A stretch of 37,826 bases of DNA, taken from assembly GCF_004010195.1 (NCBI RefSeq), contig NC_057719.1:43227789-43265614 (forward strand), given 5' to 3'. Numbering within the stretch: position 1 is the stretch's first letter; every line of letters begins with the position of its first letter. The stretch comes from Chiloscyllium plagiosum (Eukaryota). Below the pieces are notes generated by a model. The model saw only the letters and a program-made list of their open reading frames with translations, was not told the DNA's origin and made no database searches. The position numbers were made by a program, and so were the translations under genes. Below, one piece after another: positions 201 through 36,457 of this stretch.

Positions 201-587
201 CTCTGCAGGCTCACCATGCTCAGCTGCAACTTCTGTACAGTTGGGGATCGCAGGAATGGTGTAGGCAAAGGGGCTTGGCACTTCTAGAGTCCTGAGAAGA
301 GACTTCTGGGGTTCTTATCTGTGTGATTCCTCTCCTATCTAGGTGCCTCCTGGCACTACCCTGTCTCCTTGAGAGGAAGGAGCATTTGGAGTGAGGTCCA
401 CATTCCCCACCTCATTCTCACCTTGCCTCACTGATGCTGAACATAAATGATTAAAGCATTCTGCTGGCCCGGCTTTCCCCATGACAGCTGCCAACCCGCC
501 CATAAAGACACCAAAAGCATCTTTCAATCTAGACTACCAAGCATTTATGAGAAACTTGCCTGCTGTTCCTATGTTTATCTGTGTATG

Positions 588-1630
588 TGTACAAAGTTAA
601 AAATCACACAGCATCAGGTTATAGTCCAACAGGTTTATTTGGAAGCACTAGCCTTCAAGGCGCTACCTCTTCATCAGGTAGTTGTGGAACAGGACCATAA
701 GACAGCTTTTTATAGCAAAAGGGTTATAGTGTGATGGAGCTGTAACAATATATTAAACAAATTTAGATTAAGTCTTTCATATTTTTAAATAGGATATGCT
801 AGTTTTGGTTCTTTAATATGTAAATCCCAGAGCTCTTTTTAAGTTACATTCTCAAGGTAGCTTCAGCTTTTCTGGCAATGGATGCCATCTCAGCTCAGAC
901 AATGCAGTAAAGATGTGAGGTTAAAGTCTGTCTGTGTCCCAGTGTTGAGTCAGACTGGTTCTATTTCTAAAATGGGACTTACAGAATCTTACATGGATTT
1001 ATGCAATATATTTTTGAGCAAAATAAAATGTAATTCTGCAATACAAATTCACCCCATAAACTTGTATATGCGCACAAGCAGAGGAGACAGTGAGTGCGTG
1101 CTTGTGAATGTGAACAAGCTTGGTCAAGTAGGTGTGTGAGTGTGATGGGGTATAAGCCTGTGAGAGGGTGCATGTGTGTACGTATTGCAGAGGGTCTGTT
1201 TGAGTATGTTGGAGTGTGTGTAGTAAAGTGGGGTCTCCTGTAGTGTGACATGAACCCAAGGTCCCAGTTGAAGCTATCTCCTTAGGTACCAAACTTGGCT
1301 ATCAGCCTCTGCTCAGCTGCTTTACATTGTTGCTTGTCCCAAAGTCTGCTATGGAGGATGGTCACCCAGGGGTCCAAGGCTGCATGTCCGAATGGGAGGG
1401 AACACTCCTGGCTGGTGATTGTTGCGCGGTGTCCATTCATCCATTGTCGTAGCGTCTGTTCAGTCTCACCAATGTACCATGCCTCAGGGCATCCTTGCCT
1501 GCAGCGTATGAGAGGCAACGTTGGCCAAGTCAACAAGTACCTGCTGCGTACGTGGTGGAAGGTGTCCCCACATGGAAAGGTGGTATTTATATCGACACTG
1601 ACATATCTTGAAGTGGTACAAAGTTGTTAA
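588..1630 (-). mobile_element. Penelope-like element 3' part: GIY-YIG endonuclease remnant, 3' UTR and hammerhead-bearing terminal repeat
   Basis: ORF 1282-1536 reads IRCRQGCPEAWYIGETEQTLRQWMNGHR...EQRLIAKFGT (YIG motif, catalytic R and E). The terminal segment 588-680 matches the arms at 34904-35110. Confidence 0.85.
646..680 (-). ncRNA. Degenerate minimal hammerhead ribozyme motif (family B)
   Basis: TAC-CTGATGA-A-GAGG tagcg CCTT-GAAG-GCTA-GTG; GAAA is mutated to GAAG. Confidence 0.65.
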
Positions 1631-1964
1631 TGACCACCACCGCGGGATCATGCACACGAGTAGTCACAATGATGGTGGAGTAACACAGTGTGATAGCCTT
1701 TCTTGGTTTGCAGCATTTGAGGTTGTGCACGACTGGACTTCAAATGTGGCACTAGTAATATGAGTGACACAAGGTCCAGCAATTGTGAGCACATTTGCCT
1801 CTGCTGCCACATGATTGCATCAGTTTGGCACCACAGAGCCCTAATATACATGTTATAATGCATACAAGATTGGTTTGAGCCACAATTGGACATCTGCCAT
1901 GAAATTATATGAAAATGGGAACATTCAGTCCATACTTTCCTCCATCTTTGTGTTTCTTTGCAGA

Positions 1965-6517: not shown

Positions 6518-7354
6518 TTAGGACCCAACAATGATCTCCATGATGTGATCAAGTTCATTTAAGTCTGTTTTGCAGTTTTGGGGAGAATTTATGGGTGTTG
6601 ATGTGTGAGATGGTAAACCATTTAATAATTCAAATATGACTGGTGTTGTTTTTGGACCAGTCATCAGCCCAGACATCACTGAGTCAAGCTCATGCCAAGA
6701 AGTGTCAATATCAACAAATAGATCATCTATTGTCATATCTGTGAGAGAGCTGGAGTAATTTGCAATCTCAAAAGTCCCAAACACTTGATCCAAGGGCTTT
6801 GGACACTCCTTCAGATCCACTTGTTGCTCCTCAGATTCCAACATATTCAGATCATTTTCAAAATGTGCTTGGACCAAATCTTTTACAGCACTGGAGTCTT
6901 TAGCAGAAGCAGTAGCTGAAGAACAAGTAATATTCTCACAAGATGAACAGTTTACCTTGCTTTTAGTAAGTGTGTCGGTATTGCGGATGGAAGCAGTGGT
7001 ACTTTCTACATGTAGCTCTTTGTTTGGGCTACATAAAAAATCTGTGGCAATTAGACTATCTGAAGAAGTATGATCTATGTACAGATCACTTCCTGTGAAA
7101 GCCATTTGTCCCTGCCAACTGCAGTCTTGTATCATTTCCTCCTGAATCTGTCGCACGGTGTTGGCTATAAGCACTGAACGACAAAGATTTGGTTCCACCA
7201 CCATCTTGCAGAGCTGAAGTTTGAACAATGAGATGTTTAGAAGTGACTGGCGTTGCAAATTATATGGCAAATTAAGACTGCTACCAACAGAATCAGGGCA
7301 GGCATCTACAACTTGCTCCTCAGGAAATTTACGCTTTGTGCCTTTTCCCAACAT
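6518..7354 (-). CDS. CDCA4: Cell division cycle-associated protein 4 (SERTA-domain / TRIP-Br family transcriptional co-regulator), single coding exon, 278 aa
   Basis: Uninterrupted ORF. SERTA core YNLQRQSLLNISLFKLQLCKMVVEPNLCRSVLIANTVRQIQEEM closely matches vertebrate CDCA4 (recalled YSLQRQSLLDMSLVKLQLCHMLVEPNLCRSVLIANTVRQIQEEM). Also LDQVFGT, DDLFVDID and C-terminal CKTDLNELDHIMEIIVGS; N-terminal KRK motif; good Kozak (aacATG). Confidence 0.93.
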   Translation of the reverse strand: MLGKGTKRKFPEEQVVDACPDSVGSSLNLPYNLQRQSLLNISLFKLQLCKMVVEPNLCRSVLIANTVRQIQEEMIQDCSWQGQMAFTGSDLYIDHTSSDSLIATDFLCSPNKELHVESTTASIRNTDTLTKSKVNCSSCENITCSSATASAKDSSAVKDLVQAHFENDLNMLESEEQQVDLKECPKPLDQVFGTFEIANYSSSLTDMTIDDLFVDIDTSWHELDSVMSGLMTGPKTTPVIFELLNGLPSHTSTPINSPQNCKTDLNELDHIMEIIVGS

Positions 7355-7360
7355 GTTGAC

Positions 7361-7711: not shown

Positions 7712-8006
7712 GAGTTTTGAGAAGATCTGCAGCTCCGGTTGAGATTCTGGATGTAGGTTTTCAGACTTTTCATCACCATACTAGGTAACATCAGTGAGCC
7801 TCTGGATGAAGCACTGGTGATATGGCCTGCTTTTTATGTTTCCTTGGAGTGGTGTTGCCATTTCCTGTTGTCATTTTCTGTTGTTTTTCTCAGAGGGTGG
7901 TAAATGGGATCCCACATAGACTTGGATCTCATTTACCACCCCCTGAGAAGAACAGGAAAACTTCTGAAAACGAACCTTACAGCTCAGCGAGCAAAACCTA
8001 CATCCA
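7712..8006. mobile_element. PLE-type terminal-repeat insertion with inverted halves (family C), in the CDCA4 intron
   Basis: Outer inverted segments (ctggatgtaggtttt / aaaacctacatccag) and an inner inverted repeat 7882-7912 / 7924-7954. 13-bp TSD gcaactggaggga (7699-7711) / gcaactgcaggga (8007-8019). Decayed hammerhead at 7761-7797 (minus). Confidence 0.7.
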
Positions 8007-8810: not shown

Positions 8811-10315
8811 CATAGAGTTGTACAGCACAGAAACCCATACTGACCAGGTATCCCAACCTAACCTAGTCCCATTTGCCAGCACTTGACCCATACTCCTTTA
8901 AACCCATGCAATTCATATGCGCATCCAGATGCCTTTTAAAATGTTGTAATTTTACTAGCCTCTACACTTCCTCTGGCAGCTCATTCCATACACGCACCAC
9001 CTGTGTGTGAAAACGTTGCCCCCCGGGTCCCTTTTTATCTTTCCCTCTCTCATCATAAACCTATGCCCTCTAGTTCTGAACTCCCCCCACCCCAGGAAAA
9101 AGACCTTGTCTATTTATCCTATTCATGACCCTCATGATTTTATAAATCTGAGGTCACCCCTCAGTCCCCGGGAAAACAGCCCCAGCCTGTTCAACCTCTC
9201 CCTGTAGCTCAAATCCTCCAGCCCTGACAACATCCTTGTAAATCTTTTCTGAACCCTTTCAAGTTTTACAACACCTTTCCGGTAGGAAGGAAACCAGAAC
9301 TACATGCAATATTCCAGAAGTGGCCTAATCAATGTCTTGTACAGCCGCAACATGACCTCTCAACATCAATACTCAATACTCTGACCAATAAAGGAAAGCA
9401 TACCAAACACCCTCTTCACTCCCCTAGCTACCTGCGACTCTACTCTCAAGTAACTATGAACCTGCACTCCAAGGTCTCTTTGTTCAGCAACACTTGCCAG
9501 GACCTTACCATTAAGTGTATAAGCCCTGCTAAGATTTGCTTTGCCAACAGGCAGCACCTCGCACTTATCTAAATTAAACTCCATCTGCCGCTCCTCAGCC
9601 TATTGGCCTGATCTGATCAAAATCCTACTGTAATATGAGGCAACCTTCTTCGCTGTCCACTACACGCCCAATTTTTGTCATCTCCAAACTTACTAACTAT
9701 ACTTCCTATGTTAGTGTCCAAATCACTTATGATAAAAAGTTGTGCACCCAGCACCGACTGTTGTGGCACTCCGTTGGTCACATGCCTCCAGTCTGAAAAA
9801 CAACCCTCTACCACCTCCTTCTGTCTTGTGTTTCAGCCAGTTCTGTATCCAAATGGCTAATTCTCCCTGTATTCCTCGAGATCTAACATTGCTAACCAAT
9901 CTACCATGGGGAACCTTGTTGAACACCTTACTGAAGTCCATGTAGATCATTCTGCCCTCATCCATCCCCTTACTTTTTCAAAAAAACTCAATCAAGTTCG
10001 TGAAACACAATTTCCCATGCACAAAGGAGAAAGTGAGGACTGCAGATGCTGGAGATCAGAGCTGAAAATGTGTTGCCGGAAAAGCGCAGCAGGTCAGGCA
10101 GCATCCAAGGAACAGGAGAATCGGGCATAAGCCCGAAACGTCGATTCTCCTGTTCCTTGGATGCTGCCTAACCTGATGCGCTTTTCCAGCAACACATTTT
10201 CAGTTCCCATGCTCAAAGCCATGTTGACTATCCCTAAATCAGTCCTTGCCTTTCCAAATACATGTAAATCTTGTCCCCTCATGATTCCCTCCAATAACTT
10301 GCCCACCACCGTCAG
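8811..10315 (-). mobile_element. CR1 LINE, 5'-truncated ORF2 (RT) pseudogene with 3' tail
   Basis: Frameshifted RT segments IYMDFSKVFNKVPHGRL, NGVPQQSVLG, SKFGDD, MEFNLDKCEVL; interrupted by the insertion at 10027-10203. Confidence 0.93.
10027..10203. mobile_element. Fold-back PLE-tail insertion (family A) nested in CR1
   Basis: 62-bp inverted arms 10062-10123 / 10142-10203 (3 mismatches); the loop carries GGGCATAAGCCC-GAAACGTC; 15-bp TSD 10012-10026 / 10204-10218. Confidence 0.85.
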
Positions 10316-22194: not shown

Positions 22195-22324
22195 TCATCA
22201 GGATTCCTAATGAAGGGCTTTTGCCCGAAACATCGACTCTCCTGCTCCTCGGGTGCTGTGCTCTTCCAGCACCATCCTCTTAACTCTAATCTCCAGCATC
22301 TGCAGTCCTCACTTTTGCCTAGCT
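22195..22324 (+). mobile_element. Short hammerhead-bearing PLE-tail insertion (family A) nested in the LINE
   Basis: TTC-CTAATGA-A-GGGC tttt GCCC-GAAACATC-GA plus tail; preceded by a small inversion cttcatcagga; TSD 22182-22194 / 22325-22337. Confidence 0.85.
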
Positions 22325-22510: not shown

Positions 22511-22952
22511 GATACGCAAGGCCATGGATGCCTGATCTTGAGCTGCTAGATCTGTTCGAAGTCTGTCCCATTTAGCACGGTGATAGTGCCACACAATACA
22601 ATGGAGGTTATTCTCAATGTGGAGGTGGGACTTCATCTCCATAAGGACTGTGTTGTGGTTGCTGTTACTGATACTGCCATGGACAGATGCATTTGCAGCT
22701 GACAGACTGATAAGAATGAGGTCAAGTATGTGATACGCAAGGCCATGGATGCCTGGTCTTGAGCTGCTAGATCTGTTCGAAGTCTGTCCCATTTCGCACG
22801 GTGATAGTGCCACACAATACAATGGAGGTTATTCTCAATGTGGAAGTGGGACTTCATCTCCATAAGGACTGTGTTGTGGTTGCTGTTACTGATACTGCCA
22901 TGGACAGATGCATTTGCAGCTGACAGACTGATAAGAATGAGGTCAAGTATGT
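22511..22952. repeat. 221-bp direct tandem duplication
   Basis: Copies 22511-22731 and 22732-22952 differ at 3 positions by my reading. Confidence 0.95.
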
Positions 22953-29220: not shown

Positions 29221-29600
29221 TTAAACATGCAAGGCATTGAAAGATAGTTCGCCTGAGAACAGACAAAACATAGCTACTTCCTGCATCTTCTGTAATGGCA
29301 TATGTAATGAGACAATTGCATCACCAGTAATTTAGGTATTTGGGGAAATAAATCCATCCCTGCTTATGAAGGTAATAGTCCTGAGATTGACTCTTTATAG
29401 GCACATGCGTGATTTTAATGAAGCCCTCCATTTACAGGATTCTAGCCACCTGAAGTCCCATAATGTCTGTCAGATCCTCTTTGATGGGTTCATGTAGAAC
29501 TCAGATGTGCTTGAACTCTAACAAAGGAATAAAAATTGACTTCCTAATCAGTGCTATCAGATTCCATTGGAAGGCATTTGACATGAGTTGAGCAATGGGA

Positions 29601-29726
29601 TGATGAAGGGCTTTTGCCCGAAACGTCGATTTTACTGCTTCTCAGATGCTGCCTGAACTGCTGTGCTCTTCCAGCACCACTAATCCAGAATCTGGTTTCC
29701 AGCATCTGCAGTCATTGTTTTTACCT
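29601..29726 (+). mobile_element. Short hammerhead-bearing PLE-tail insertion (family A)
   Basis: TGATGA-A-GGGC tttt GCCC-GAAACGTC-GATT plus a tail nearly identical to 36377-36456. Confidence 0.85.
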
Positions 29727-30500: not shown

Positions 30501-31332
30501 GAATTGAATTGAATTAGCTTTATTGTCTCATGTACACAAATGAGTACAGTGAAAAGTTTATAAGTTGTCATTAACTGTGCTACCTTGGATACAAAGGTGC
30601 CAAGATACAATCCTTAGTTGCAGAATAGAGAAATGAAGAAAAAAAGGTAGATTACAGCTCTACACAACATAACCACAGATCAGAAAAACAAGAAGCAAAG
30701 TTAAAAAGACAAACATCACAGTCTCTTTCCAAAGTCTGTCCACAGCAAACCAGTGCAGGGGACCTCTACTTGTTCTGACTGTTGGCTATCATCGTAGTCT
30801 GCCGGCATCCCTGCTCTGGCTGCTGGTCACCAGCCTCCCTGTTCAGGCTGCAGGCATCCCTGCTCTGGCTGCTGGTCACTGGTATCCCCACTCTGGTTGC
30901 GGGCACCAGCGTCTCTGCTCTGGTTGCTGGTCACTGGCATCCCCACTCTGGCTGCTGGTCACCGGCCTTCCTGTTCAGGCTTCTGGCATCCCCACTCTGG
31001 CTGCTGGTCACCGGCCTCCCTGTTCAGGCTTCTGGCATCCCCACTCTGGCTGCTGGTCATCGGCCTCCCTGTTCAGGCTTCTGGCATCCCCACTCTGGCT
31101 GTTGGTCACCGGCCTCCCTGTTCAGGCTGCAGGCGTCCCTGCTCTGGCTGCTGGTCACTGGCATCCTTGCTCCAGCTACTGGCATCCTTGCTCTTGCCAC
31201 TGGCATCTCCGCTGACTGCCAATCCCAGCTGGAGCCAAGTGTCCAAGGCCAAGAGAAGGGAGGAGATAGGGAGAAAAAAGAAAAAGAATAGGTAGAGCAG
31301 AGGAGCTCTGTGTCCTACTCTGCCACCATCTT
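30501..31332 (-). mobile_element. Non-autonomous retroelement (Rex/Babar-like ends) carrying a minisatellite
   Basis: 5' end AAGATGGTGGCAGAGTAGGAC; 3' end cactgtactcatttgtgtacatgagacAATAAAgct + (AATTC)n; no RT between. Confidence 0.55.
30804..31215. repeat. GC-rich minisatellite, 49-bp unit built from 28- and 21-bp subunits
   Basis: ggcatcc-like unit starts at 30804, 30853, 30881, 30936, 30985, 31034, 31083, 31132, 31160, 31181, 31202. Confidence 0.92.
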
Positions 31333-34197: not shown

Positions 34198-34866
34198 GAG
34201 AAGACATCTTTAATAGTCACTCAAACCAGCAAAATTTTGATTAGTTCAGCTATAGTAGCAGTTTTAGAAATCACATCTGGAGAGGGCAAATTATTTTCTG
34301 ACAGTAAATTTGGCGAAATCTCTAGTATTTTGGAATATAATTTATTCTATTATTTATATGAAGGAAAACTGAAACAAATGCTCGCTTTAGTATGTTGCAA
34401 TAATTATTAGCAAAGTATCAGTAGTTTTTTGGTTTTTGGGTTGATTTTAACTTCGGTGACTGAATCCCCCAAAGAAATGTGTAAGGGTTTCAAAGCTTTT
34501 AGATGGCTTATCTTTATCTCCCTTTGTCAGGAATGCTACCCAGGAATTTTCCAGTGTTAATGGACAGTTCACCAGAGAGGGATTTGGATTTTCAGGCAGG
34601 ATTTCTGTCAATACAAAGCTGGCTATATCTCTTAAAATTACAAGATTTTTGTTTTGTACACAGAGAGAGACAAAGGCATCCAACTATCTGGACCCTGTCC
34701 TGGAGATTTACTTGTGTAAAATAAACTTTAGTACTCCCTCACTGAAACTAGAGTGCTTCACAAAACACTGAAACAAGCTTGAAGGGAGAGTTCAGAACAA
34801 ATGAATACTCCTAATGTATAGCTAGAATGTTCAAGGTTAAAAAAAGACAAACTTATCCATAATAAG

Positions 34867-35110
34867 CATGATTTGGAGATGCCGGTGTTGGACTGGGGTG
34901 TACAAAGTTAAAAATCACGCAACACCAGGTTATAGTCCAACAGGTTTAATTGAAAGCACACTAGCTTTCAGAGCGTCACTCCTTCATCAGGTGGTAGTGG
35001 AGGGCTCAATCCTAACACACAGAATGATGAAGGAGCGACACTCTGAAAGCTAGTGTGCTTCTAATTAAATCTGTTGGACTATAACCTGGTGTTGTGTGAT
35101 TTTTAACTTT
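34867..35110. mobile_element. Fold-back PLE terminal-repeat insertion (family B) with two opposed hammerhead motifs
   Basis: 86-bp inverted arms 34904-34989 / 35025-35110; exact 14-bp TSD TTATCCATAATAAG at 34853-34866 and 35109-35122. Confidence 0.88.
34959..34993 (-). ncRNA. Minimal type-I hammerhead ribozyme motif with intact core
   Basis: CAC-CTGATGA-A-GGAGT gac GCTCT-GAAAGCTA-GTG: stem I CAC/GTG, stem II with G-U pairs, palindromic AGCT in place of stem III, predicted cleavage after CUA. Confidence 0.75.
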
Positions 35111-35129
35111 ATCCATAATAAGAATTGCC

Positions 35130-35580
35130 TTTTTGTTGCTATAAGAAGCATGTTATTAAACTGGAAAGGGTGTAGAAAAGATTTACAAGGATTTTGCCAA
35201 GACTAGAGGGTTTGATTTATAAGGAGAGGCTGAATATGCTGGGACTTTTTTCCCTGGAGCATCAGAGACTGAGGTGGGACCTTATCGAAGTTAAAAGAAT
35301 AATGACGGGCACAGCTAAGGTGAATAGCCAAGATCATTTCCCCTGAGTAGTGGAGTCCAAAATTAGAGGGCATAAGTTTAAGATAAGAGGGGAAATATTT
35401 AAAAGGCACCTGAGGAGCAACTTTTTCATGCAGTGCATGGTGCATATATGAAATGAATTACCAAAGGTTAGTGCCATTACAATATTTAAAAGACAGGTTC
35501 ATGAATAGGAAAGGTTTGGAGGGATTTGGGCCAAAGACAGGCAAACAGGACTAGTTCAGTTTAAGAAACCTAGATGGCAG
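35130..35580 (+). mobile_element. CR1 LINE 3' fragment
   Basis: attaaactggaaagggtgtagaaaagatttacaagg...ggacttttttccctggagcatcagagactgagg. Confidence 0.88.
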
Positions 35581-35861
35581 AAAGAGAAATGAAAATAAGT
35601 GTGTATTTTTATCCTGGAGACAAAATAACACCCAGCTATTTGAGCTCCTGATGTGTTCAATACTTACTTTTCATTGTTCCCTTTCTGCTATTTGCTGGCC
35701 ACTTTACAAAATTGATCCCTTCTGAAATTGAGTCTTTAGTTGGTCTTTTCAGCCAGTATCCACTGTATAGTGTAGTGGACCTTTGTAATTCATAGGCCAG
35801 GGAACATTCTGGGAACATAGGCATGCAGGCCTTCCATTACTGCTGACATGGAACAAACTCT

Positions 35862-36457
35862 CTTCTCACCTCCATCCAAGGCCCTAAAGGAGCCTTCCAC
35901 ATCCATCAAAGTTTTACCTGCACATCCACTAATATCATTTATTGTATCCGTTGCTCCCGATGCGGTCTCCTCTACATCGGGGAGACTGGNNNNNNNNNNN
36001 NNNNNNNNNNNNNNNNNNNNNNNNNNNNNNNNNNNNNNNNNNNNNNNNNNNNNNNNNNNNNNNNNNNNNNNNNNNNNNNNNNNNNNNNNNNNNNNNNNNN
36101 NNNNNNNNNNNNNNNNNNNNNNNNNNNNNNNNNNNNNNNNNNNNNNNNNNNNNNNNNNNNNNNNNNNNNNNNNNNNNNNNNNNNNNNNNNNCTTCCCTGA
36201 CCTATCACCTTCATCTCCTTCCCCACTGACCTATTGTACTCTATGCTACTCTCTCCCCACCCCCACCCTCCTCTAGCTTATCTCTCCATGCTTCAGGCTC
36301 TCTGCCTTTATTCCTGATGAAGGGGTTTTGCCCAAAACGTCAATTTTGCCTGTCCTCGGATTTTGCCTGTCCTCGGATGCTGCCTGAATTGCTGTGCTCT
36401 TCCAGCACCACTGATCCAGAATCTGGTTTCCAGCATCTGCAGTCATTGTTTTTACCT
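35862..36457 (+). mobile_element. Penelope-like (Neptune-type) element 3' part spanning an assembly gap
   Basis: 35865-35989 (a frame not in the ORF track) reads LTSIQGPKGAFHIHQSFTCTSTNIIYCIRCSRCGLLYIGETG (GIY-YIG). After the N gap come a C/T-rich UTR, CTGATGA-A-GGGG tttt GCCC-AAAACGTC (36314-36341) and the family A tail. Confidence 0.88.
35990..36191. other. Assembly gap (N run)
   Basis: Run of N; true length unknown. Confidence 0.99.

Follow-up and report, generated by a model that had tools for sequence, protein, structure and literature searches.

Inverted copies of the end of a PLE have been described before. In Adineta vaga Pen2/Pen2a, an inverted pLTR lies within an 8-10-bp TSD and one pLTR optionally carries a 31-bp tail (PMC3846280). 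The same build has been put forward as a general scheme for endonuclease-positive PLEs, in which a 30-40-bp tail is often present at one end only (PMC8557442). In the anole element PAc, this tail lies between, and is bounded by, two reverse-transcription start sites; the anole protein cuts and extends both target strands and prefers AT-rich DNA, the start site is the same for both strands in vitro, hammerhead cleavage needed the protein, and insertion did not require cleavage (PMC11167929). The minimal hammerheads of metazoan PLEs were defined in PMC4209133, which reports that a single motif did not cleave and describes opposed pairs of such motifs 100-700 bp apart in Schistosoma mansoni. Finally, non-LTR retrozymes have been reported in one chondrichthyan genome (bioRxiv 10.64898/2026.07.22.740005).

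In this work, we analyzed an insertion within a stretch of 37,826 nucleotides of Chiloscyllium plagiosum (contig NC_057719.1, positions 43,227,789 to 43,265,614; hereafter, the window). We assign a probability of about 0.93 to a PLE insertion as opposed to a MITE. The insertion is best explained as a dead-on-arrival insertion that contains the end module only, in the form of two 5'-truncated copies placed head-to-head. The initial annotation had correctly identified opposed PLE ends, but it did not recognize that the outer extension of the left arm is the known PLE tail and that the insertion as a whole is the published inverted-pLTR pattern. The features discussed are the following:

34853-34866: TSD, left copy, identical to 35109-35122
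34867-34897, minus strand: PLE tail, an A/C-rich 3' extension of 31 nt ending in ATG, left arm only
34898-34903, minus strand: end of the tail-less family form, shared by the left arm and the 588 copy; the right arm stops short of it
34904-34989, minus strand: portion of the left arm that pairs with 35025-35110, corresponding to the 3' end module (pLTR)
34959-34993, minus strand: minimal type I hammerhead motif, from the descriptor scan
34990-35024, minus strand: unpaired centre, in which the left arm runs on for 35 nt from the hammerhead core upstream to its 5' truncation
35025: head-to-head junction, where one T fits both arms (1-nt microhomology)
35025-35110, plus strand: right arm, an inverted, tail-less, 5'-truncated copy that starts at U4 of the hammerhead core, C3 being lost
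35109-35122: TSD, right copy, whose first 2 nt overlap the right-arm end
587-1615, minus strand: related 5'-truncated PLE copy elsewhere in the window (the 588 copy), with a tail-less end at 587-599 and a damaged hammerhead at 649-677
about 1237-1632, minus strand: GIY-YIG remnant, a decayed reading frame upstream of the 588 end, matching P0002 and P0003

Both the fold-back architecture (PMC3846280, PMC8557442) and opposed minimal hammerheads (PMC4209133) are already on record; a search of literature with few subscription journals yielded no paper on this shark PLE family. The shark insertion shares with Adineta vaga Pen2/Pen2a (PMC3846280) a head-to-head inverted end, a TSD around the whole unit, a hammerhead in the end module and a 31-nt tail on one end; it differs in having no ORF between the ends (the two copies are truncated within 158 and 86 nt, respectively), a TSD of 14 bp instead of 8-10 bp and a centre without palindrome. 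With the Poseidon element PAc of Anolis carolinensis (PMC11167929) it has in common two termini around an A/C-rich tail, an AT-rich target and the joining of both target strands to element 3' ends. In contrast, the clade differs by motif, since the shark relatives carry a CX4CxxC linker that Penelope/Poseidon elements do not; the ORF of PAc begins at helix II, whereas in the shark the core ATG opens a frame of just 8 codons; and no significant stem-loop was predicted in the shark tail (z -0.86 and 0.90). Like the insertion, non-LTR retrozymes are short, non-coding, hammerhead-bearing and derived from PLE pLTRs, but they are head-to-tail tandems, while the shark pair stands head-to-head and provides no dimer on one transcript (bioRxiv 10.64898/2026.07.22.740005). 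A retrozyme was rejected for this reason, the two motifs lying on opposite strands. In L1 twin priming, the element RNA is primed from both target strands, with an inverted 5' part left inside one TSD; the second primer lands internally and the parts do not overlap. The analogy is limited in that both shark arms start at the 3' module, which yields a fold-back. The MITEs of DDE transposons are likewise short, non-coding, hairpin-forming, TSD-flanked and abundant, whereas the shark case has asymmetric ends, a variable centre, TSD lengths that differ within the window and an RT/GIY-YIG partner.

Architecture of the insertion and of its relatives in the window

The 270 bases at 34853-35122 consist of two 86-bp inverted arms enclosed by an exact 14-bp TSD. 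This 14-mer occurs only twice in the window, and such a match is expected by chance with a probability of 1.3e-8 at the given place, or 6e-6 with ±10 nt of slack at each end. The pair is one of 20 exact direct repeats of at least 14 nt spaced 100-1000 nt apart in the window, the remaining 19 of which fall into tandem or duplicated blocks at 22.5, 28.4 and 30.8-31.0 kb (22511-22952 and 30800-31200 comprise a direct duplication of 221 nt and ~49-nt units arrayed in tandem). The exact 14-bp repeat first reported as a TSD is confirmed, although the length of the duplication is better given as 12-14 bp because the right arm ends in TT, which doubles as the first 2 nt of the repeat; alternatively, with a one-base slip, it would measure 17 bp because AACTT stands before both copies. 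The A+T content reaches 74% in 54 nt of flank plus TSD versus 59% in the window. Besides, the target at 34852-34866 has 5-bp inverted ends (CTTAT ... ATAAG), so that the two inferred nicks would sit in nearly the same sequence on both strands.

The arms 34904-34989 and 35025-35110 pair at 80 of their 86 positions; all six differences are transitions, and the arms are 7% apart. The RNA fold has a z of -21.8, and 0 of 200 shuffles were as stable. As initially described, the left arm is longer at both ends, by 37 nt on the outer side (34867-34903) and 35 nt towards the centre (34990-35024), and the right arm starts at TGATGA without the core C, an A standing in place of C3. In the sense of the element the left arm lies on the minus and the right arm on the plus strand, with the 3' ends pointing outward and the truncated 5' ends meeting at 35025. 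At the centre, one matching base closes a loop of 35 nt, and a palindrome is absent. The 31-nt tail is missing from both the right arm and the 588 copy, and it extends the left arm 31 nt beyond the 588-type end and 37 nt beyond the right-arm end. The ATG on which it ends (34867-34869, minus) has an in-frame stop 15 codons upstream and may be an ORF start in tandem copies.

The arms had been matched to the end of a GIY-YIG element at 588-680, and this holds: both are 85-88% identical to 587-688, with 84.6% over 104 nt. The 588 copy, which with the insertion makes 2 copies of this family in the window, is, though, a different variant, 2 nt shorter, with another loop II and a GAAG core, and it lacks an inverted arm. 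Its terminal 10-mer (589-598) is found again, unchanged, at the point of 5' truncation (1616-1625); this is probably the 10-bp TSD of the 588 copy, with long primer-template homology, and suggests that its target matched the element end by 10-12 nt. The nuclease fragment upstream of it on the same strand (1237-1632) had no Pfam match, and its identity rests on protein relatives, of which 15 were found among 51 candidates, RT-bearing shark proteins included. It matches P0002 at 60% and P0003 at 54%, and the eight species-named relatives come from Chiloscyllium, Scyliorhinus and Mustelus. In P0013 and P0015, a reverse transcriptase domain is followed by a CX4CxxC linker and then by the GIY-YIG core; P0013 combines an RVT_1 domain with the same nuclease start. 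The linker is also found in P0002 and P0003 and is degenerate in the window remnant. As CX2-5CxxC in the RT-EN linker marks the Neptune/Nematis clades (PMC8557442), the element is, judged by this motif, an endonuclease-positive PLE of Neptune/Nematis type. Another GIY-YIG fragment begins at 35847-35990 (Pfam E 0.15; weak P0015 match) and is cut by an N gap at 35990-36191. Scans with exact patterns gave 0 matches in viral and metagenome contigs, and P0013 had no match in the viral contigs scanned with it.

The fold-back at 10012-10218, the second in the window, matches the 34853-35122 family in build though not in sequence: 65-nt arms (94%), an 18-nt centre, a left-only extension of ~33 nt and a 15-bp duplication with one mismatch. 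Both TSD-flanked fold-backs of the window thus bear a one-sided tail (2/2). An inverted repeat at 7882-7954 was set aside, as it has no flanking duplication of at least 7 nt. The best Rfam match in the window, to a miRNA model, falls on the 10012-10218 fold-back and is treated as false, and the eight weak Rfam matches in all are treated as chance or hairpin artefacts. One of weak score, to the ODC IRES in the unique left flank (34547-34672, plus; 26.9 bits against a 44-bit cut-off, E 2.7), is probably due to chance. Elsewhere in the window, an intact 280-codon frame with a SERTA motif (6518-7360, minus; Pfam E 3.6e-18) represents a host gene, presumably CDCA4-like, and a decayed high-copy repeat seen in the read-depth table at 35150-35400, which we take to be LINE-like, begins ~27 nt to the right of the insertion.

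Termini, inner junctions and age in public runs

Four of 24 listed public runs were aligned to 34250-35400: contigs X5 (organism B), X8 (organism C) and X15 (organism A), and raw reads X19 (organism A; 4% of the run). In X19, depth was ~34,000 over the arm and 0.54 in the flank, the latter value deriving from few reads, which points to tens of thousands of copies of the end-module family. Alignments with loose ends accumulate at two places. Among the 24 rows listed, those ending before 34867/34868/34869 number 4590/4162/2711 reads in X19, 982/963/618 contigs in X5 and 931/865/577 contigs in X8, and those ending behind 35108/35110 number 384/481 contigs in X5 and 338/429 in X8; the tail-less terminus is not among the six X19 rows listed. 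The sequences beyond the loose ends are AT-rich and agree at 0.34-0.37, as unrelated sites do. The family therefore has two termini, 31-44 nt apart, one at the tail end (34867-69) and one at the tail base (~35108-11), and the two ends of the insertion coincide with them, the right arm falling short, by a few bases, of the tail-less end seen most often.

The inner junctions, on the other hand, vary. Of the 15 joints listed (more than 1100 rows exist, and detection was limited to a short stretch), 11 connect the left arm with the right, each at a different pair of positions, and leave 0-24 nt unpaired in the centre, one of them none, versus 35 nt in the insertion analyzed here. Family contigs (X5, X15) match through 35024-35025 and then stop, so this centre is not the family norm. 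Reads and contigs also jump back within the end module, at 34906-34952 and 35076-35109 (132 raw reads from 34952 to 34906), which suggests short tandem duplications in some copies. One opposite-strand joint, 34959/34995, was seen in all four runs, with 72 raw reads and 48 different starts, while the other joints listed have 0-6 reads. Position 34959 would be the hammerhead cut site in the 2-nt-shorter variant, and 34995 lies 5 nt upstream of the core. The joint may represent either a copy that was amplified or a locally inverted segment; that it marks templates beginning at the hammerhead cut site, and would thus be genomic evidence of cleavage in vivo, is unlikely.

The copy itself is old, as shown by arms 7% apart next to a flank divergence of 2.9% in organism B and 2.0% in organism C. 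For four of the six positions at which the arms differ (34919, 34953, 34978, 35062), the read table lists a change specific to this copy. Organism B already carries the insertion, since one of its contigs crosses the left junction and continues from the flank 30 nt into the element. No joint skipping the insertion, as an empty site would give, was present among the 15 joints listed for the four runs.

Origin of the fold-back

From the two ends, the TSD and the junction, which are observed, we infer nicks, priming events, early stops and joining as follows. The nuclease, presumably the GIY-YIG enzyme of the element, would nick both strands of the AT-rich site 12-14 nt apart. Primed by the top-strand nick, reverse transcription would begin at the outer tail end (34867) and stop after 158 nt, and the bottom-strand nick would prime a second cDNA near the tail base, a 2-nt AA/UU match possibly helping, with a stop after 86 nt. 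Joining of the cDNA ends over the 1-nt match and fill-in by repair would then leave a fold-back with a one-sided tail. Since each fold-back would be built anew at insertion, it is not a self-copying unit. This two-primer route is, in our judgment, somewhat the better bet. It had been proposed from the outset that both strands were primed on the terminal sequence of the element; this proposal is plausible and agrees with the in vitro data on the anole PLE, but the observations made here are compatible with cDNA self-priming or endonuclease resolution as well, both of which have also been proposed in the literature.

In the latter case, the same PLE insertion would have taken place, but the inverted arm would have arisen by self-priming, the cDNA (or an antisense template) folding back on itself and being copied, and the nuclease then resolving the product at the tail base so that the tail stays on one side. 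Self-priming has been proposed in PMC3846280, and the origin of the tail by EN-mediated resolution in PMC8557442. The close arm starts in the listed joints (0-24 nt, one of them without unpaired centre) agree with it, as do the variant letters common to both arms (the 2-nt-longer form, loop II and the U at 11.1), which would be expected from one template. The same letters are, however, equally expected from two primers on one RNA or subfamily, and the 11.1 change lies at a CpG. Furthermore, the 35-nt loop at this locus is closed by a single base, without a palindrome, and the second end is a family-wide terminus that corresponds to an RT start site in the anole element (PMC11167929). We therefore regard self-priming as a serious alternative, though one with less than even odds.

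Whichever way the second arm was primed, several lines of evidence support the original claim of a PLE retrotransposition product over a MITE: the one-sided tail, the two classes of terminus, the many inner junctions, the GIY-YIG PLE remnant with the same end in the window, and the differing TSD lengths (14 bp here, 15 bp with one mismatch in the second family, probably 10 bp in the 588 copy). A true MITE or other non-autonomous unit would be a fixed fold-back copied whole. The nearly fixed outer ends, the very high abundance of the family (X19 arm depth ~34,000 against ~0.5 in the flank) and the recurrence of the 34959 to 34995 joint (72 reads, 4/4 runs) could be read in this sense, but two termini combined with many different inner junctions are incompatible with a fixed unit. 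In place of matching terminal inverted repeats, the left end has 37 partnerless nt, so that the ends are not mirror images and the tail stands on one side only; in place of a homogeneous internal structure, the inner joints differ among copies and family contigs cease to match at the junction of this copy; and the sole coding relative found is a GIY-YIG/RT element, while TSD lengths within the window are unequal. We consider a MITE very improbable. An origin from two separate insertions, or from a deletion that later joined two longer opposed copies, is just as implausible: the 7% distance between the arms and the microhomology deletions common in PLE copies (PMC3846280) would allow for it, but a single exact TSD surrounds both arms, both arms are of the same variant, and the second family of the window and many read joints have the same build. 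A deletion inside one longer head-to-head insertion is possible but would leave the class unchanged.

Returning to the two-primer route, it is tempting to speculate that the fold-back stubs of this genome strictly have one end with and one without a tail, and that this rule arises because each target strand is assigned its own RT start site, which may be achieved by, for example, the two halves of a dimeric PLE protein. We put this forward tentatively, as an idea that is possible but short of probable. The in vitro data of PMC11167929 do not explain such a rule, because they show no start-site difference between strands.

Hammerhead motifs and significance of the stubs

A descriptor scan following PMC4209133, in which up to one core mismatch was allowed and more damaged motifs fall outside, gave four hammerhead candidates in the window. 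Only that at 34990-34962 (minus), with triplet CUA, has no core mismatch, in agreement with the initial annotation, which had named 34959-34993 (minus; CUA) as the best-preserved hammerhead of the window. Hammerhead families were not among the eight Rfam matches of the window. The motif has a 3-bp helix I, intact CUGAUGA and GAAA, and a 5-bp helix II that includes two G-U pairs; the loop of helix III is absent, a palindromic AGCU standing instead. The cut is predicted to fall between 34962 and 34961. The absence of a helix III loop, the palindromic 15.2-16.2, the short helix I and an extra base between positions 9 and 10.1 are all shared with the minimal hammerheads of metazoan PLEs; what differs is that G-U replaces the usual G10.1-C11.1 pair in both arms, that the opposed motifs stand less than 100 bp apart, and that the right one lacks C3 (PMC4209133). 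The left motif is a minimal, dimer-type one, for which lone cleavage is not expected, and a dimer in cis is impossible at the insertion because the motifs lie on opposite strands and the right one is without C3. Two further damaged hammerhead-like motifs, at 22207-22234 and 29600-29631 (plus), belong to another family and have one core mismatch each.

The insertion has no evident function, and as a single locus it carries little weight, since the repeat is very abundant, its architecture is published, and this copy is old and non-coding. It does serve as a warning for annotation, as such stubs resemble MITEs or microRNA precursors. In bulk, however, they could test the origin of the inverted copy and of the one-sided tail, which both PMC8557442 and PMC11167929 leave unresolved. 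If the strict one-tail rule were true, shark genomes, with tens of thousands of copies, would constitute a natural data set on the formation of PLE inverted repeats.
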